Origin: an archaeon
GTDB lineage: Archaea > Iainarchaeota > Iainarchaeia > Iainarchaeales > CSSED10-239
Assembly (NCBI GenBank): GCA_037147375.1
Contig: JBAWVI010000046.1
Coordinates: 1 to 7,538, forward strand
Direction of reading: 5' to 3'
DNA length: 7,538 nt
A program made the translations under genes and the position numbers. Positions within the stretch are counted from its first letter, which is position 1, and every line of letters starts with the position of its first letter. Shown here piece after piece: positions 1 to 7,538 of the stretch. The notes below the pieces were generated by a model. It did no database searches and was not told where the DNA came from. It saw only the letters and a list, made by a program, of their open reading frames with translations.

Positions 1-1984
1 CCTTTCTTTTAAATCTTTCAACTTCGATTGCAGTTACAATTATGATTATGAAAAGACCAGCAACAATTATATAAAGTAAAGTATTGTTTGAAATTGTTTT
101 TTCTTTTTCATAAACATATACCTTTTGTTCATTAGCATCTTTGTTTCCTGTGGTCTCGTCTTGTGAAATAATTTTTGTAACATTATTTGTATCTACTACA
201 ATAACTTCTATGCTTGAGTTATCTGCGTTATTGTAATAAGCTAATACTTTATCTTCAACCTCAAGTATTCCTTTTGCCATATTAATTATAGAATTTGAAG
301 TTTGCATATCTCCTTTAGATTTTGCAACATCTGTTGCTGCAAAATATTGAGATGATTTATAAAAGTAAAGTGCATGATCTAAATACATTTTTGACCAAAC
401 ATGATTTTCTGAATTTAATTCTTTAATAGATCTAAGTCTACTATTAATAGTATCAAACTTTGCTTGGAATGGCACAGCCTCAAATGCTTGTACAGATTCA
501 TCCTTTGTAATTAAGATACCCATTGTTGTTGCTGAATCATACATAGATGTAACATACCAACCCTTCTCATAATTAATTTTAGCAGCGCTAAGTCTTCTCA
601 TAAGATCAGGATCATTTGATGTTTCTGGAGGAGAAATCATTAATTTATTTTCAATATCAATAATTCTTTGTTGTGCTTCATCCTTAAATGTACTTGATTC
701 TATAAACTTATATTTTGATTCAGTAATTCCAACATCAAGGAAATCATTTGAAATTTCAACCCATCCAACTGCATAACTATAATCTGAAACTCTTGTAAGT
801 GCTTCATTTGTGTTACCAGCTTTTAAAACTTCAAGCTTTTGCTGAGCCCAAGTAAGTCTTTGTCTAGCACCAATACACCATTCTAGTCTTTCAAGAGAGC
901 ATAAGCTACTTCTGTTTTCAGTAAGCTTAATCTTCTCTTCTAAAGTCTTTATTTTATCATCTAAAACAGTTGATGATTCACTAAGCATAGATGGATTATT
1001 TAATATTTCAGTTACGATTGTAACATTTACAATTGCAATAAATGAATTATTTGCTGCTGAATATAAATAATTATTAGATGAATATATTTTTGCTTCATTA
1101 ATTGCAGTTTCTGCACCTTCAGTTATTGATAAAATATTTTCTTGAATACTTTGATCTTTAATTAAGGTACTTTTATTAAGATTATCTTTTGCAGTTGCAA
1201 GTTTATCTTCAGCAACTAAAACAAAACTATCAGTTATGTTCTTCATTGGGTTTAATGCAATTGAATATTCTAGTTTACCAGGTGTAAACATTTCTGGCTT
1301 AACAATAGGAACAGAACTAATATTTATTTCATCAATGTTCTTTGAAACATATCCAAGAACATCAGTTAAGTTTTGTACTTCAACAATCTTCATACCCCAG
1401 GTTTTATATGAATAATCTATTAAATCAATTTTTTGAACATTTCCATCAATTGTTACAACTTGGATTCTGTTTCCTGCAGGAATCATAAATAACTTAATTC
1501 CAACTTCGCTTGCTTTTCTTGCTTTAAGGTAGATACCACCAACATCTCCAACAAAACCTTCTTGAGATATTGTTCCAGTCATACTTATATCGTTTGCTAT
1601 GTTTCTATCTTTAAACATAGACACCATTAAAAGAGCCATTGCAGCACCAGCTGATGGTCCATCAATTGAATAAGCACCAGAATCTATTTCAAATATATAA
1701 TCATATTTAGTTTTTGTGTTACCAATAACAAGATCAGTTGCATTAACTGCATACTTTTGAGATTCTTGGGTAGTGTTTCCTACAAGAGAATCAATATTTG
1801 CTAAAACCTTACCTGTTCCTGGGTGAATTTCTATGTTTAATGTTGCTTCCATTGCTGAATCTGGACCAGAAACTGCAAATATCTTCATTTCTCCATGTTC
1901 AATTAAAGCATAAGAGAATGGAGCTATGAAAACCATTGATATTGCTAATATAAGAAAACTAAGTAAATATTTTTTATTAAACAT
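1..1984 (-). CDS. Exported, membrane-anchored Lon-type (MEROPS S16 / Lon_C-like) serine protease domain protein with no AAA+ module. The 3' end runs off the window (>=661 aa).
   Basis: This ORF is absent from the supplied track because it has no in-window stop. My line-by-line translation from the ATG at 1984..1982 stays open for 661 codons down to nt 2. The N-terminus MFNKKYLLSFLILAISMVFIAPFSYA looks like a signal peptide or anchor. YSIDGPSAGAAMALLMVS (Ser111, nt 1652-1654) and GDVGGIYLKARKA (Lys154, nt 1523-1525) match the Lon Ser-Lys dyad, with the same 43-residue spacing as E. coli Lon S679/K722. A helical region of about 430 aa follows. The C-terminal hydrophobic segment LLYIIVAGLFIIIIVTAI (nt 26-79) is followed by the basic tail EVERFKRK. 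A GAGGTAGG motif (1994-2001) ends 9 nt upstream of the ATG. Confidence 0.85.
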   Translation of the reverse strand, partial: MFNKKYLLSFLILAISMVFIAPFSYALIEHGEMKIFAVSGPDSAMEATLNIEIHPGTGKVLANIDSLVGNTTQESQKYAVNATDLVIGNTKTKYDYIFEIDSGAYSIDGPSAGAAMALLMVSMFKDRNIANDISMTGTISQEGFVGDVGGIYLKARKASEVGIKLFMIPAGNRIQVVTIDGNVQKIDLIDYSYKTWGMKIVEVQNLTDVLGYVSKNIDEINISSVPIVKPEMFTPGKLEYSIALNPMKNITDSFVLVAEDKLATAKDNLNKSTLIKDQSIQENILSITEGAETAINEAKIYSSNNYLYSAANNSFIAIVNVTIVTEILNNPSMLSESSTVLDDKIKTLEEKIKLTENRSSLCSLERLEWCIGARQRLTWAQQKLEVLKAGNTNEALTRVSDYSYAVGWVEISNDFLDVGITESKYKFIESSTFKDEAQQRIIDIENKLMISPPETSNDPDLMRRLSAAKINYEKGWYVTSMYDSATTMGILITKDESVQAFEAVPFQAKFDTINSRLRSIKELNSENHVWSKMYLDHALYFYKSSQYFAATDVAKSKGDMQTSNSIINMAKGILEVEDKVLAYYNNADNSSIEVIVVDTNNVTKIISQDETTGNKDANEQKVYVYEKEKTISNNTLLYIIVAGLFIIIIVTAIEVERFKRK

Positions 1985-2073: not shown

Positions 2074-2095
2074 AAAAAGCAAGATAAAATAAAAA
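2074..2095 (-). terminator. Candidate archaeal oligo-T termination signals after the DUF3750-like gene.
   Basis: On the minus strand, the 30 nt downstream of the TAA stop (2106..2104) read tcttcTTTTTattttatcttgcTTTTTaat. The two T5 tracts are at 2091-2095 and 2074-2078. Archaeal RNA polymerase is known to terminate at oligo-T runs. Confidence 0.3.
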
Positions 2096-2103
2096 GAAGA
2101 TAA

Positions 2104-2574
2104 TTACTTCTTCTTAATTATATAATTTTTTCCTATTGCATTTCTTGGGAGTTTTATTTTAATTTCTGGAAAATTATTAAGTATCCATTGAACATAAGTG
2201 TTGCTGTTGGGACCTAGAAAATTATAGATATGTAAATATGGATAGTTCTTTTTACTTTTCTTAACAAAATCAATTATTTTTTTTGCTAGTGCACCCTCTT
2301 TTTTATATAGAAGAGTGCCATTCCAAAACCATTTTTCAAAAAATATGAATTTTTCGATACCCTGAAAATGTGGAAACAAGTCAAGGTATAAATGAGTATT
2401 ATCTTTATTTTTTAAATGACGAACCTCATATCTTGTTAACTTGCCTTTTTCATTAATAACTATCCAAGGATGTCTTGCAAAATGAAATGGAGCATTTGCT
2501 GGGCAAGTGAAAATAAATACTTGATATTTATCTTTCTTAATTAATTTATTATAATCTATAATCAATTTAATCAT
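2104..2574 (-). CDS. DUF3750-like protein of unknown function, 156 aa, with no N-terminal membrane segment.
   Basis: This is a track ORF. ARHPWIVINEKGKLTRYEV and the C-terminal LGPNSNTYVQWILNNFPEIKIKLPRNAIGKNY resemble, from memory, the H-x-W-I-V ... R-Y-E/D-V ... PGPNSNTF-x-W ... LP-x-x-A-x-G-K/R-D-Y pattern of DUF3750 proteins. Its ATG (2574..2572) overlaps the scpB TGA (2573..2571) as ATGA. Confidence 0.75.
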   Translation of the reverse strand: MIKLIIDYNKLIKKDKYQVFIFTCPANAPFHFARHPWIVINEKGKLTRYEVRHLKNKDNTHLYLDLFPHFQGIEKFIFFEKWFWNGTLLYKKEGALAKKIIDFVKKSKKNYPYLHIYNFLGPNSNTYVQWILNNFPEIKIKLPRNAIGKNYIIKKK

Positions 2575-3122
2575 TTATTCCTTTTTTTTCTAGAATCAGG
2601 GTAAAGCATTTCAAACTTCTTTGTGGTTACAAGAACGTGGCGTCTTCCCTTTTTTTCAACAGTAACTAGGTTTAGATCCTTTAGTTTCTGAATATGCTCA
2701 TAAGGCCTCTTTCCAGTTATCTTTGATTGCATAACCGGGGAATTTAAGGATATATATGCTAAGGTTTTAAGCTCTCCTTTTGAAAGAGCAGCGCCAGCAG
2801 AGAAAACATTAAAAGAAGAGTATTCTGGTTTAACAACCATCTCAATATTTTCTCCATCTTTAACAATAGATATTCCTGAGTTTCTTTTATAATATTCATG
2901 CATAAGCTCAGCTATCTGGATATCAATTAAATCATGAGAAAGTCCAGGAAGAACTTTATAAATTTGTTTTAGTGCAATTGATTTTGGAGACATAAAGATA
3001 ATTGCTTCAATAGCTCCTTTAAGATAATTAGAATCAAACTTTTCAAGATCAAGCTTAACTTGAACTTGTGGTACATCTTTCTTTTGTGATGATACAATTG
3101 ATTTTTTTTCTTCTTCAACCAT
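2571..3122 (-). CDS. scpB: Segregation and condensation protein B (ScpB, SMC-associated KITE subunit with tandem winged helices).
   Basis: Three segments parallel Bacillus subtilis ScpB. AIEAIIFMSPKSIALKQIYKVL corresponds to AIVEALLFAAGDEGLSLKQIAAVL. LSKGELKTLAYISLNSPVMQSKI corresponds to LSQAALETLAIIAYRQPITRAEI. GRRHVLVTTKKFEMLYP corresponds to GRPILYGTTPEFLDYFG. The length (183 aa) is typical. Confidence 0.85.
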   Translation of the reverse strand: MVEEEKKSIVSSQKKDVPQVQVKLDLEKFDSNYLKGAIEAIIFMSPKSIALKQIYKVLPGLSHDLIDIQIAELMHEYYKRNSGISIVKDGENIEMVVKPEYSSFNVFSAGAALSKGELKTLAYISLNSPVMQSKITGKRPYEHIQKLKDLNLVTVEKKGRRHVLVTTKKFEMLYPDSRKKRNK

Positions 3123-3188
3123 AATTTATCAACATATAATTTATTAAACAATAATATAATAGATAAAGAATATAAAGATTATGCCTCT

Positions 3189-3536
3189 TTATTTCTTCTT
3201 CAAGGATTTCTTAATTGAATTTATTCCATACTCAATAGGAATTGTATCCATATTTAATGGAATTTCTTTAATATCAAGCTTTTCCATAAACTCACGATAT
3301 GGTATACCAGCAATCTCACTTGCTCCAGAAAGATTAACTAACTTATTTTTATAATTTTCAATTGCTTTTAATAACCTATACTCTGAAATATCTTTTTCTA
3401 TTAAGGATCTTATGTATTCTGATTCAGTTAAATTCTTTTCTTTTGCAATTGAATAAACAATAGTTGATAAAGAATCCTTTAATCTTAATGTTTTTACATT
3501 CATTTTATCCTTTAGTTCATATTTGTACTTTACCAT
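3189..3536 (-). CDS. Antitoxin-like DNA-binding protein with an N-terminal ribbon-helix-helix-like segment fused to a C-terminal UPF0175 (COG2886) domain.
   Basis: The C-terminal half, LLKAIENYKNKLVNLSGASEIAGIPYREFMEKLDIKEIPL, fits the UPF0175 pattern (short helix, then an S-x-x-x-A-A-E-x-A-G HTH, then the E-F-x-x-x-L-x-x-x-x-I-P tail). The N-terminal NVKTLRLKDSLSTIVYSIAKEKNLTESEYIRSLIEKDI has the strand-helix-helix periodicity of CopG/MetJ RHH proteins. An alternative start at the ATG 3503..3501 (MNVKTLRL) is preceded by AAGGA. Confidence 0.8.
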   Translation of the reverse strand: MVKYKYELKDKMNVKTLRLKDSLSTIVYSIAKEKNLTESEYIRSLIEKDISEYRLLKAIENYKNKLVNLSGASEIAGIPYREFMEKLDIKEIPLNMDTIPIEYGINSIKKSLKKK

Positions 3537-3550
3537 AATTACACACCAAA

Positions 3551-4078
3551 TTATAAATATTCTTTAATGTTTTTTAAACAACTAACAGGTATTGAGCTTT
3601 TTATTAAATCAATCTTTGAAAATACTTCTTTTTTAGATATCTTTTTTTCTAAATATAAAAATAATATAAATTCAATAATATTTGCAATCATTATATTGTT
3701 TTCTTTACAATAATTATATGGTCTTCCATTATCTATAAATAAAATATACTTTGTTTCTTCAGATAAAGCAATGCAATAAAGCTCTCCAGAATCTTTTGAA
3801 ACCTGACTTTCTAGTTGCTTTTTAATATGCTTTGGATCTTGCACGATTATTATTCCATCTTTCTTTAATTTATTATATTGTTTGATGTCTTCAGGAGTGT
3901 GTATAATAAATTTAAATGATTCTGACCAAGTTATTTCTTGCTCGACTTTTGTTGGGATAATAATTATCTTATAATATTCTAAGAACAAAGATAATAAATC
4001 AACTTTAATTAAATGTATCCAGAAAGATGCATCAACAATTGCACATGATCTATTATCCATATTAATTATATATACCAT
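3551..4078 (-). CDS. PIN-like nuclease-fold protein of the COG2405 / DUF3368 family (putative toxin).
   Basis: CAIVDASFWIHLIKVDLLSLF, IIPTKVEQEI, DSGELYCIALSEE, ILFIDNGRPYNYCKENNI and MIANIIEFILFLYLEKKIS follow the DUF3368 layout, with acidic residues at the four canonical PIN positions. An alternative start at the ATG 4060..4058 (MDNRSCAIVDAS) lies 22 nt downstream of a TTTATAAA box, which would fit a leaderless mRNA. Confidence 0.8.
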   Translation of the reverse strand: MVYIINMDNRSCAIVDASFWIHLIKVDLLSLFLEYYKIIIIPTKVEQEITWSESFKFIIHTPEDIKQYNKLKKDGIIIVQDPKHIKKQLESQVSKDSGELYCIALSEETKYILFIDNGRPYNYCKENNIMIANIIEFILFLYLEKKISKKEVFSKIDLIKSSIPVSCLKNIKEYL

Positions 4079-4082
4079 AAAA

Positions 4083-4108
4083 TTTATAAAAGTATTACTA
4101 GGTAATAC
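4083..4108 (-). promoter_or_regulatory. Candidate promoter/operator of the PIN / RHH-UPF0175 pair: a TATA box abutting a perfect 7-3-7 palindrome.
   Basis: GTATTAC-TAG-GTAATAC lies at 4092-4108 as a perfect 7-bp inverted repeat. It is 1 nt from TTTATAAA (4083-4090), so the palindrome occupies the BRE-proximal side of the TATA box. The whole element fills the 32-bp gap between the coiled-coil gene stop (4111) and the PIN start (4078). Confidence 0.35.
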
Positions 4109-4110
4109 AA

Positions 4111-4710
4111 TTAACTAAATTCTAAAAATAGTTGATTGCTTGATAATTCTCTATCAAGAGTACTAAACATTTTTATTCTACTATTGGTTTTTCTTAATTC
4201 TAGGTTTCTTGTAATTATCTTCATGATCTGAGAATAAAGTATTTCTCTTTTATTTCTTTCAATTGGATTATTAATATCATATAAATTATTTAATTTTTCA
4301 TCTAATTTAATATTAAATGAATTATATTTTTTAGTTAATATATTGTAATTTGGTTCTTTACTATCAAGCATAATAAGTTCTTTTTGCTTAATTAAATTCA
4401 TTCCAATCTCCAGTTTTCTAATAATTTTATTTGTTTTTGTTATTGATGCTCTAATCTCGTTTAGATTTTTGTTATTTTTATTATCTTGCTTAAAAATTAG
4501 TTTGTCCTTTTCCTTTTGAATTTCAATCTTTAATTTGCTTACTTCGTCTCTAAGTGTTGGGAACTTATAAACAAATTCTTTTCCAAAATAAGTAAAGGTA
4601 TGAACCTTTTTTGGATCAATAATTAATTTTCTTGGTAAATGCCCCATTTGATTTATTGTTTTAATTTTAGTAAACAATTTTTTAATAGGCATTTTTTGCA
4701 TAAATATCAA
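4111..4710 (-). CDS. Hypothetical lysine/asparagine-rich coiled-coil protein, about 193-199 aa, with no recognisable family.
   Basis: This is a track ORF. The track start is a TTG at 4710; ATG alternatives are at 4701 (MQK) and 4692 (MPIKK). Long heptad-like stretches include EVSKLKIEIQKEKDKLIF, IRASITKTNKIIRKLEIGMNLIKQKEL and ILYSQIMKIITRNLELRK. It has no hydrophobic segment and no catalytic motif that I recognise. It sits 11-29 bp downstream of the pilin-like gene. Confidence 0.65.
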   Translation of the reverse strand: MIFMQKMPIKKLFTKIKTINQMGHLPRKLIIDPKKVHTFTYFGKEFVYKFPTLRDEVSKLKIEIQKEKDKLIFKQDNKNNKNLNEIRASITKTNKIIRKLEIGMNLIKQKELIMLDSKEPNYNILTKKYNSFNIKLDEKLNNLYDINNPIERNKREILYSQIMKIITRNLELRKTNSRIKMFSTLDRELSSNQLFLEFS

Positions 4711-4721
4711 ATAGAAAGAAA

Positions 4722-4967
4722 TTAATTTGGATTTATGTTTTGACTTGCATTTTGAGGTATATAGATTACACTAATAGCAGTATTAAAATCTTTAACAAAA
4801 TTATCAGTTACATCTTCAGTTCCTTCAACTGTGTCTGTTGTAGATTCAATAGATTTACCTGAAAAATCTAAAAAGATAACAGCTAAAGCAATTGCAACCA
4901 CAAGTAAGATTGCTATTAATATTATTATTTCAAGAGAAACTTGTGCTTTTAATTTTTTATATATCAT
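4722..4967 (-). CDS. Small archaeal type IV pilin-like protein with a class III signal peptide (Class_IIIsignal / DUF361-type).
   Basis: MIYKKLKA|QVSLEIIILIAILLVVAIALAVIFL contains an exact QxSxExxxL motif (Q9, S11, E13, L17). It follows a short basic leader ending in K-A and is itself followed by a hydrophobic helix of about 20 residues. The mature part is about 73 aa and acidic/Thr-rich (TTDTVEGTEDVTD). An AGGT motif lies 9 nt upstream of the ATG. Confidence 0.8.
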   Translation of the reverse strand: MIYKKLKAQVSLEIIILIAILLVVAIALAVIFLDFSGKSIESTTDTVEGTEDVTDNFVKDFNTAISVIYIPQNASQNINPN

Positions 4968-4979
4968 AAATATTCAACC

Positions 4980-5108
4980 TTATTTTTTATATTTTGCAAT
5001 TAATTTTTTTAATAATTCTGCTTTTTTTGGGTTTTTCTTCACACTAATAACCTTACGTACAGCTTGAGCTTTAATCTTTTTCTTAAGTCTAGGACCAACT
5101 CTATTCAT
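4980..5108 (-). CDS. Unannotated 42-aa highly basic small protein (MNRVGPRLKKKIKAQAVRKVISVKKNPKKAELLKKLIAKYKK).
   Basis: I translated this ORF myself; it is not in the track. The ATG is at 5108..5106 and the TAA stop at 4982..4980. A GAGGT motif (5117-5121) lies 8 nt upstream, the same spacing as at the 227-aa gene. TTTAAATA (5148..5141) lies 32 nt upstream. Its stop overlaps the pilin gene's SD-like motif (TAAGGT). 17 of 42 residues are K or R. The ORF is short, so coding status is not certain. Confidence 0.5.
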   Translation of the reverse strand: MNRVGPRLKKKIKAQAVRKVISVKKNPKKAELLKKLIAKYKK

Positions 5109-5140
5109 AAGTAAAAACCTCAAATATATGTTATCATTAC

Positions 5141-5161
5141 TATTTAAAAAACTATTGCAAT
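5141..5161 (-). promoter_or_regulatory. Candidate promoter for the cassette (small ORF and downstream genes). The T6 tract may also act as the scpA termination signal.
   Basis: The minus strand reads ATTGCAAT-agtt-TTTAAATA. The TATA consensus 8-mer at 5148..5141 is identical to the one at 2061..2054. T6 lies at 5146-5151 and an 8-bp palindrome ATTGCAAT at 5154-5161, all in the 73-bp gap after the scpA stop. Confidence 0.35.
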
Positions 5162-5181
5162 CATTAGCTTTTGGCTTTTAA

Positions 5182-6729: not shown

Positions 6730-7538
6730 TCACTGTTTTTTAAGTTCTTTGTATGCTTCAAAAGCAGCTACAGATCCTTGTGCTTCTGCAGTTATTACTT
6801 GTTTAAAATCACTTGAATCAGTAATATCTCCTGCAGCAAATAATCCAAAAACATTTGTTTTCTGGGCCCTGTCAACCTTAATAAATCCATATTGATCAAG
6901 ATCTACATTTAGATTTTTTAATAGGTCTGTATTTGGAACAGCCCCTATTTCAATAAATAAACCATCAAGCTCTCTTTGGTCTCCATTCTGGAATTTAACT
7001 CCAGTTAATTTAGCTTCAGCAAGAAGTTCAGTTACTTCTGTATTATAAAGTATTTCAATTCTTGGATTTTTAAGTAATATATCTACCCAAGCAGGCTCTG
7101 CTCTAAGTTTATCCTTTCTATAAATTAAATAAACCTTACTTGCAATATCTGCAAGAACTAGTGCAGAAGTTACTGCTGCATCACTTCCTCCAACAACCCC
7201 AACAACCTTATTTCTAAAAAATCCACCATCGCATGTTGCGCAATAAGATATTCCTTTACCAACTAATTCTTTTTCTTTATCAAGCCCAAGCTCTCTTCTT
7301 GTATTTCCTAAAGCTAAAAGAACTTTACTTGCTTTAAGGGTTCTTGTGTCTGTATTAACTATAAATAGATTATCTTCTGTCTTATCTATTTTCATAACTT
7401 TTTCATAATAGATAGGGATTTCAAGTTTTTCAACTTGTTCAGTTATTTTATTCATAAGTTCAAGACCAGAGATTTCAATAAATCCAGGATAATTACAAAC
7501 CATGTGTGCAAGAGTGATTGTTCCTCCAAGGGATCCTG
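6730..7538 (-). CDS. trxB: Thioredoxin-disulfide reductase (low-Mr TrxR family). The 5' end runs off the window.
   Basis: It carries the redox-active ISYCATCDGGFF (CxxC) motif, the second dinucleotide-binding segment VVGVVGGSDAAVTSAL, then LIYRKDKLRAEP, and the FAD-binding tail GLFAAGDIT. The frame stays open upstream of the track's internal Met (..GSLGGTITLAH-MVCNYPGF, the usual GGQL..T..veNyPGf region), so the true start lies beyond nt 7538. Confidence 0.9.
   Translation of the reverse strand, partial: GSLGGTITLAHMVCNYPGFIEISGLELMNKITEQVEKLEIPIYYEKVMKIDKTEDNLFIVNTDTRTLKASKVLLALGNTRRELGLDKEKELVGKGISYCATCDGGFFRNKVVGVVGGSDAAVTSALVLADIASKVYLIYRKDKLRAEPAWVDILLKNPRIEILYNTEVTELLAEAKLTGVKFQNGDQRELDGLFIEIGAVPNTDLLKNLNVDLDQYGFIKVDRAQKTNVFGLFAAGDITDSSDFKQVITAEAQGSVAAFEAYKELKKQ

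Follow-up and report, generated by a model that had tools for sequence, protein, structure and literature searches.

An old, lineage-specific variable slot, rather than a freshly inserted cassette, probably separates scpA from scpB in an archaeon of the Iainarchaeota

The window analysed here is a whole metagenome contig of 7,538 bp (ENA ERZ4223250 NODE_11522) from an archaeon of the Iainarchaeota, in which the kleisin gene scpA and its partner scpB are held apart by an interval (3189-5181) with five small genes. All genes of the window lie on the minus strand, in the order trxB-orf227-scpA-42aa-pilin-orphan-PIN-UPF0175-scpB-DUF3750-Lon_C. An earlier note, made from the DNA letters alone, had taken the five interval genes (for a 42-aa basic protein, a pilin-like protein with a class III signal, a helical orphan, a PIN-domain protein and an RHH-UPF0175 protein) for one accessory cassette stabilised by a toxin-antitoxin pair. 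All five open reading frames (ORFs) are present at the spacings of 11-32 nt that it gave (12, 11-29, 32 and 14 nt). Comparison with related loci leads us to consider it likely that the interval is an old, lineage-specific variable slot, filled by a mosaic of residents and a toxin-antitoxin pair. The mosaic appears to have four parts, namely the pilin-like gene, the 42-aa gene, the orphan and the pair. The value of this comparison, which turns an apparent inserted cassette into a layered mosaic, is mainly corrective. The finding is largely ordinary, and no current understanding is overturned by it.

The two condensin genes are named on the strength of profile scores above the Pfam cut-offs. ScpA reached 50.8 bits against SMC_ScpA (PF02616; cut-off 24.6) and has 93 full-length homologues, whose source-given names, where present, are ScpA; the named ones come from Candidatus Iainarchaeum metagenome-assembled genomes (MAGs) and from unclassified archaeal MAGs. 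ScpB reached 79.5 bits against SMC_ScpB (PF04079; cut-off 27.4) over residues 37-171, 63 bits against TIGR00281, which is under the equivalog cut-off of 89, and 244 bits against a hidden Markov model (HMM) made from its relatives. The genes share a strand with 2,059 nt between them, so the same-strand split that had been read from the sequence holds. An assembly artefact or chimera could be ruled out. The locus recurs on a 16.5-kb contig of MAG GCA_964445425.1 and partly on three shorter contigs of other assemblies; orphan, PIN, UPF0175 and scpB follow one another in five assemblies of the strain group (the window contig, L004 and L001-L003). The MAG contig L004 carries the complete scpA-to-scpB arrangement, which is also found in L051/L052, a relative about 92% identical in DNA.

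For the wider comparison, 36 ScpA homologues were aligned and one genome per GTDB species was scanned, which gave 25 loci; the contigs of the closest ScpA proteins were added, and the loci were annotated by phmmer and hmmsearch with the window proteins. In 16 of the 25 species-representative loci scpA abuts scpB (nine Iainarchaeota, with gaps of 3-19 nt, and seven Micrarchaeota), in line with the earlier premise that adjacency is the norm, and in this part of the DPANN archaea adjacency appears to be ancestral as well as the majority state. Genes intervene in seven loci: class-III-signal genes in six and two unrelated ORFs in L024. Among them, a clade with the order trxB-orf227-scpA (L013, L017, L018, L019 and L023; ScpA 56-63% identical to that of the window), which includes the complete Candidatus Forterrea genome, always has one to three class-III-signal genes (127-932 aa) splitting scpA from scpB, followed by scpB-Lon. 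In other Iainarchaeota (L016, L020, L021, L024 and L025) a class-III-signal gene often lies immediately upstream of scpA. Seen against these loci, the split of scpA and scpB is real and lineage-specific. The junction in L024 seems to have been invaded independently, in a different Iainarchaeota species; the two ORFs there (L024:10694-12723; 248 and 454 aa) have neither a class III signal nor a Pfam match.

The pilin-like gene is a conserved occupant of the slot. Its product begins with MIYKKLKA directly followed by QVSLEIIILIAILLVVAIALAVIF, that is, a basic stretch, the junction KA/QVSLE and a hydrophobic helix, which fits the pattern of G or A before Q-x-S-x-E. The class III signal motif is common to all positional analogues of the 81-aa protein. 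Orthologues or analogues occupy the slot in L006, L037, L041, L044, L009, L013, L017, L018, L019 and L023, and among relatives with at least 56% ScpA identity and a complete interval, none is without a class-III-signal gene between scpA and scpB. With a strict motif screen, all 17 class-III-signal ORFs in about 340 kb of Iainarchaeota loci (L012-L029) immediately adjoin scpA; the screen found no other in the remainder of the flanks (about 10 kb) and none in five unrelated loci. Because class-III-signal genes keep to the scpA neighbourhood across loci, the pilin-like gene appears to be an old resident of the slot and not a newcomer.

The contents of the slot change between close relatives. Within the genus, taken here as ScpA at least 77% identical and divided into two subclades by the ScpA identity matrix, the interval spans 0.5 kb to more than 8 kb, and its contents include liv transporter genes, DUF3750 and AAA_14 (Table 1). 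Both subclades have the orphan and the PIN-UPF0175 pair, placed either inside the interval or shortly downstream of scpA. When the window is compared with L009, PIN is 71%, UPF0175 87% and DUF3750 65% identical at the protein level, as compared with 77-80% for core proteins (ScpA 80%, TrxB 77%, orf227 within the range). In the L009 species, scpB was not found within about 12 kb downstream of scpA on the contig extended with L053. The 42-aa gene is common to species with a ScpA identity of about 90% or more and absent at about 80%; although the DNA has frame-preserving indels, its ORF has the same length in L037 and in L006 (54% identity), and its basic character is retained across the three species.

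Table 1. Gene order from scpA onwards in the window and in relatives of the same genus, with ScpA identity to the window protein. Dots stand for further genes.
Locus	ScpA identity	Gene order
Window	100%	scpA-42aa-pilin-orphan-PIN-UPF0175-scpB-DUF3750-Lon
L051/L052 (~92% DNA identity)	98%	as window, minus DUF3750
L037 (8.2 kb)	91%	scpA-42aa-pilin-orphan-(livM livH)-truncated UPF0175 (74 aa, no PIN)-DUF3750-...-AAA_14-ABC ATPases-AP endonuclease-scpB-Lon
L006/L012	90%	scpA-42aa-pilin-scpB-Lon
L041	81%	scpA-pilin-pilin-orphan-scpB-Lon
L044	81%	scpA-pilin-(livM livH)-PIN-UPF0175-DUF3750-...
L009	81%	scpA-736-aa pilin-like-(liv genes)-PIN-UPF0175-...-DUF3750-...

When the DNA of the window is aligned with L006, two clean indels appear: L006 has 58 bp in place of window 3192-4753 (orphan, PIN and UPF0175) and 2 bp in place of window 2089-2562 (DUF3750). 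Because the orphan and the pair occur in both subclades with core-like divergence, and because their GC content at third codon positions (GC3) is as in the flanks, L006 is best read as a deletion derivative, derived and not ancestral. Likewise, since GC3 matches the flanks and the divergence of the toxin-antitoxin genes tracks that of core genes, the block is most likely old and vertically inherited, and the close relatives without it would have lost it. The earlier note had allowed that the genes might turn out to be an ancestral arrangement with flank-like composition, and this is in part what the relatives display.

The idea that a single five-gene cassette was recently inserted between scpA and scpB by horizontal transfer, and is held there by its toxin-antitoxin pair, draws on the lower overall GC of the interval, on a close relative (L006/L012) that is without three of the five genes and on the predominance of scpA-scpB adjacency in the wider clade. 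The same relative nevertheless has the other two genes, the pilin-like gene is present in all clade relatives, and the orphan and the pair are found in both subclades with core-like divergence. The five genes also make up three or more units, each with its own promoter and homology boundaries. Synteny largely refutes the cassette, and we regard it as highly improbable. What stands of the toxin-antitoxin-stabilised islet is the pair itself, together with a content that is part accessory and variable in close relatives; the single recent insertion does not stand, since the pilin-like and 42-aa genes are residents and the orphan and pair are in both subclades.

Composition had been a further argument for the cassette. 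The interval is indeed richer in AT (GC 23.1% in 3189-5181 vs 28.8% elsewhere in the window), but the deficit sits in codon positions 1 and 2, in keeping with proteins rich in K, N and I, and for GC3 the ranges of interval genes (0.09-0.20) and flanking genes (0.13-0.22) overlap. Because GC3 of the interval matches the flanks, composition gives no sign of foreign origin, and a foreign composition was ruled out. Signs of mobility were also missing, as the earlier note had observed for integrases and direct repeats. No integrase or recombinase family was found in Pfam and NCBIfam searches of the window, no tRNA was found in the window, and flanking repeats were at chance level (up to 29 nt, at 79% identity) with none bracketing the interval. 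A search of 2.9 million viral contigs returned no relative of either the PIN protein or the orphan. These results speak against a viral or mobile origin and against the recent cassette alike, and the hallmarks of an integrative mobile element or genomic island (integrase, tRNA or attachment site, direct repeats, deviant composition) are all lacking here.

From general knowledge, and with no formal definition applied, the slot may instead be likened to the variable regions or gene-flux hotspots found between conserved core genes of chromosomes. The flanks (scpA on one side, scpB-Lon on the other) are fixed, close relatives differ in content, and the interval is enriched in toxin-antitoxin and transporter genes. 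It differs from such regions in having no integrase, tRNA or attachment repeats, and the indel edges lie at stop codons and lysine-tail microhomologies (AAGAAGAAGTAA), not at recognisable recombination sites. A variable slot of this common kind is already known, as is the type of its toxin-antitoxin pair; the pair here has a toxin-first gene order, an antitoxin fused to an RHH domain and a newly noted candidate operator motif.

A history that accommodates these observations would start from an Iainarchaeota ancestor with scpA abutting scpB across a gap of about 10-20 nt. In the trxB-orf227-scpA clade, one to three class-III-signal genes would have come between the two, and scpB would have acquired or kept its own promoter element. 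With the two genes uncoupled, there would then have been room for more genes in the gap. By the base of the genus it could have held the pilin-like gene, the 193-aa orphan, livH/livM, the PIN-UPF0175 module and DUF3750, which descendants would have differentially lost or reshuffled. The window genome would have kept 42aa-pilin-orphan-PIN-UPF0175, with DUF3750 now downstream of scpB. In this history we infer both the direction of gain and loss and the transcription units.

Within the mosaic, the PIN-UPF0175 pair appears to be a self-contained unit and, as a type II toxin-antitoxin-like module, would be the only part of the interval with an assignable mechanism. DNA homology to L044 and L009 extends over 928 bp from the orphan stop codon (4115) to the UPF0175 stop (3188-3189). 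UPF0175 lies on the same strand as PIN, after a gap of 14 nt, and directly downstream of PIN in 17 of 18 metagenome PIN loci, the remaining contig (L062) ending at that point. The same pair occurs in unrelated contexts, upstream of trxB (L064-66) and next to AAA_14 and an Apyc1-like hydrolase (L048). The precomputed annotation of the PIN protein and of 12 of its 13 homologues includes PF11848 (DUF3368). Its AF2 model (pLDDT 89) matched essentially only PIN domains among the top 50 Foldseek hits in the PDB, with probabilities of about 1.0; these included AF0591 (1o4w), 1v96, Pyrococcus (PH) VapC4 (5h4g) and PAE2754. Four acidic residues, D16, E48, E99 and D116, are invariant in 14 sequences of 36-98% identity. 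Among the antitoxin orthologues, 12 of 13 matched UPF0175 and 8 of 13 matched DUF6290.

Contrary to the earlier statement that the combination matches no described system, the two genes correspond to the predicted toxin-antitoxin pair COG2405/DUF3368 with UPF0175/COG2886 (Makarova et al. 2009, PMC2701414; Matelska et al. 2017, PMC5499597), and UPF0175 has been stated to occur exclusively in this toxin-antitoxin context (PMC5499597; PMC2701414). They also match the PADLOC candidate defence system PDC-S70. The pair described here resembles COG2405-COG2886 in its PIN fold with conserved acidic residues, beside a small, same-strand DNA-binding protein of the UPF0175 family, as well as in being archaeal, multi-copy and placed in varied genomic contexts. 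It departs from that description in three respects: all copies examined have the toxin gene first (PIN before UPF0175), an RHH domain (DUF6290) is added at the N-terminus of the partner, and a conserved 7-3-7 palindrome abuts the TATA box. With VapBC it shares the PIN ribonuclease fold (VapC4 5h4g and PAE2754 among the Foldseek matches) and probably autoregulation through an antitoxin that contains an RHH domain. Its genes stand in the opposite order, as VapB normally precedes VapC, the antitoxin belongs to another family (a UPF0175 helix-turn-helix plus RHH), and membership of PF01850 was not detected by sequence.

The palindrome, GTATTAC-N3-GTAATAC (GTATTACCTAGTAATAC), is unique in the window, where 0.03 matches would be expected by chance. 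A 7-3-7 element stands beside the TATA box upstream of PIN in 13 of 15 distinct upstream regions, which come from other genomes and contexts, and one region has the compensatory half-site variant GTGTTAC/GTAACAC. We infer that it is a candidate operator of the RHH-UPF0175 repressor; it was not found described in the literature on the COG2405-COG2886 pair. The TATA box TTTATAAA ends 4 nt ahead of the first PIN ATG. Because of this short distance, and because the N-termini of homologues agree, the real start of PIN is probably M7 at 4060, which would give a protein of 169 aa and a near-leaderless mRNA. In the mechanism that we envisage, the PIN protein would be a Mg-dependent ribonuclease toxin, the RHH-UPF0175 protein would neutralise it, and the dimer of the latter would repress the module promoter by binding GTATTAC-N3-GTAATAC at the position of the transcription factor B recognition element (BRE) beside the TATA box. 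The motif at BRE/TATA would then offer a testable operator for the predicted archaeal toxin-antitoxin family COG2405-UPF0175.

Several observations weigh against the interpretation developed so far. The PIN protein had no Pfam match by hmmscan even at E = 10, and a PIN profile found no match among PDB sequences. The antitoxin candidate scored 26.9 bits (E = 3.8e-6) for UPF0175 and 26.6 bits (6.8e-6) for DUF6290, each about 1 bit under the cut-off. COG2405 members vary in the conservation of active-site residues (PMC5499597). In L064-66 the operator half-sites form a direct and not an inverted repeat, and they are degenerate in L046b and L068. The 81-aa protein reached 20.8 bits against Pfam Class_IIIsignal (PF04021), under the cut-off of 23.7, although this model is short (27 positions) and sub-threshold scores are common; a pilin-like paralogue in L041 passes at 24.8 bits. 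The place of DUF3750 after scpB, instead of after UPF0175, needs an extra rearrangement. Lastly, the order of events was deduced by parsimony from metagenome contigs, without a rooted species tree.

The pair might also serve mainly as an antiviral defence of the abortive-infection type and not as a stabiliser, in which case its position between scpA and scpB would be incidental. Both proteins match PDC-S70, the neighbourhoods of copies in other genomes include Fic, AbiEii, AAA_14/DUF4143 and an Apyc1-like metallo-beta-lactamase, and some genomes have several copies. Set against this, PDC-S70 is a candidate system only, with no defined function, and while PIN matched it at E = 1.5e-9, the UPF0175 match is weak (E = 0.004). 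Such a defence role is compatible with the toxin-antitoxin mechanism and differs from it only in the proposed biological role; we think it possible, if rather unlikely. A part for DUF3750 as third component of the system, as might be thought from the contiguous PIN-UPF0175-DUF3750 of L044, was rejected as a general feature, as copies outside the genus are without it. Two side observations concern the module elsewhere. One genome has two divergent PIN-UPF0175 modules 2 kb apart (L046:7347-8191 and 10001-10876; also L047 and L063), with desulfoferrodoxin, methyltransferase and Ogg genes between them and a rubrerythrin gene just upstream of the first. In L037 (11478-11702) a decayed module is found, its UPF0175 cut to 74 aa with the RHH lost and no PIN; DUF3750 still follows it.

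A different account of the slot would tie the class-III-signal protein functionally to the condensin genes, perhaps together with the 42-aa and 193-aa proteins, so that their linkage would be selected and the genes co-expressed; the shared process might be a division-coupled surface or pilus assembly, or DNA uptake. It can point to the exclusive placement of the 17 class-III-signal ORFs beside scpA and to a linkage that, down to 47-63% ScpA identity, persists in either of two forms, with the gene upstream of scpA or with it between scpA and scpB. Yet the pilin-like genes range from 79 to 932 aa and resemble one another only in signal and helix, which suggests turnover of cargo, and five Iainarchaeota loci and all Micrarchaeota loci are without the linkage. 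The loci are, moreover, phylogenetically related, with perhaps only one or two independent events; separate promoter elements precede the 42-aa gene and scpB; and the count of 17 comes from a strict motif screen with flanks of only about 10 kb. We therefore consider this tie quite improbable compared with a variable slot of mixed content, and slightly more improbable still that the linkage across Iainarchaeota reflects a real coupling of the condensin subunits with a surface or pilus apparatus. Were it true, segregation and division might be co-regulated with attachment structures or DNA uptake in small-genome DPANN archaea, as one possibility, and the 42-aa protein and the orphan could be lineage-specific accessory factors of a pilin-condensin unit. 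The association of class-III-signal genes with scpA in Iainarchaeota is in any case unusually consistent and may deserve a genome-wide test.

A 30-nt element, CATAATCTTTATATTCTTTATCTATTATAT, which contains TTTATATT, lies upstream of scpB. Its copies in the window, L051, L006, L037 and L041 (species or strains with 77-98% ScpA identity) are 100% identical and more conserved than coding sequence. Because it is invariant whatever gene lies upstream (UPF0175, pilin, AP endonuclease or orphan), scpB probably has its own promoter. A TATA-box-like TTTAAATA with GAGGT stands ahead of the 42-aa gene, as the earlier note had recorded, and is conserved in three related species (L006, L037 and L051). A scan for bacterial promoters and terminators returned 22 sites vs 29 expected, its sigma-70 model not being applicable to archaea.

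ScpA kleisins are characterised by binding to the head and neck of SMC and, in the bacterial case, to an ScpB dimer. As in the bacterial scpA-scpB operon of the Smc-ScpAB condensin, homologues of both genes lie on one strand here, and direct adjacency is the majority state among the related Iainarchaeota and Micrarchaeota. The locus differs in that, within the genus, 0.5 to more than 8 kb of other genes come between the two and that scpB has a conserved upstream element of its own. No smc gene was found in the window or its flanks. Among the euryarchaea tested, scpA and scpB differ in position, and six pairs examined for a ScpA-ScpB interaction gave no sign of one (PMC7055376), so that their separation is less surprising in archaea. 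A physically uncoupled scpB with an invariant upstream element therefore bears on whether archaeal ScpB works with ScpA (PMC7055376).

The 193-aa orphan is genus-specific, with a conserved start, and keeps the same position in L037 and L041. Its family is tiny, with three clusters among 5.8 billion proteins in a word-indexed search and five representatives among 1.84 billion in an exhaustive HMMER search. The AF2 model (pLDDT 75) has a beta-hairpin and five helices; searched against PDB and BFVD, it gave no match better than E = 0.4, and nothing was found for the protein in Pfam, NCBIfam or PADLOC. Membership of the toxin-antitoxin module was rejected for it, as L041 and L050 have the orphan but not the pair, and L044 and L009 the pair but not the orphan. 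A distant homologue (L050:6001-6642) lies between divergently oriented livM and livH permease genes, and a liv/PBP/AsnC/AAA_14 gene set like that of L050 fills the scpA-scpB interval in L037 and L009.

The DUF3750 gene appears to be a second, strain-level indel. Its segment (window 2116-2577) is absent from L051/L052, despite their DNA identity of about 92%, and from L006, and in L001 the gene is truncated to 99 aa. DUF3750 follows UPF0175 in L044 and L037 and scpB in the window, where it is translationally coupled to scpB through an ATGA overlap. Lysine-tail-plus-stop sequences of the AAGAAGAAGTAA form stand at both edges of the indel, and sequences of this type also end UPF0175, scpB and DUF3750 in relatives. 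This suggests, if weakly at a genome GC of 27%, recombination at short A-rich microhomologies.

The features of the window are collected in Table 2.

Table 2. Features of the window, with candidate regulatory elements after the genes.
Feature	Position	Strand	Remarks
trxB (partial)	6730-7538	-	
orf227, 227 aa	5964-6647	-	unannotated
scpA (kleisin), 221 aa	5182-5847	-	Pfam SMC_ScpA
42-aa lysine-rich basic ORF	4980-5108	-	
81-aa class-III-signal (type IV pilin-like) protein	4722-4967	-	
193-aa helical orphan	4111-4692	-	conserved start MPIKK
PIN-domain toxin candidate	3551-4078	-	DUF3368/COG2405 family
Antitoxin candidate	3189-3536	-	ribbon-helix-helix (RHH; DUF6290) fused to UPF0175 (COG2886)
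scpB, 183 aa	2571-3122	-	Pfam SMC_ScpB
DUF3750 gene	2104-2574	-	Pfam DUF3750, 3.9e-22; 4-nt overlap with scpB stop
Lon_C protease (partial)	1-1984	-	
TATA-box-like TTTAAATA (5141-5148) and GAGGT (5117-5121), upstream of 42-aa gene	5117-5148	-	read from sequence
Candidate operator palindrome GTATTAC-N3-GTAATAC	4092-4108	-	abuts TATA box TTTATAAA (4083-4090)
30-nt element CATAATCTTTATATTCTTTATCTATTATAT, upstream of scpB	3154-3183	-	contains TTTATATT; candidate scpB promoter

No match was found for the UPF0175 protein among PDB sequences, nor for orf227 in Pfam, NCBIfam, PADLOC or PDB sequences. The latter gene lies directly upstream of scpA throughout the trxB-orf227-scpA clade and remains beside trxB where scpA is not adjacent (L064-66). 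At the other end of the window, the Lon_C protease has a signal- or transmembrane-like N-terminal segment, MFNKKYLLSFLILAISMVFIAPFSYA, and its gene is preceded (2033-2070) by the same arrangement of TTTAAATA and GAGGT as the 42-aa gene.

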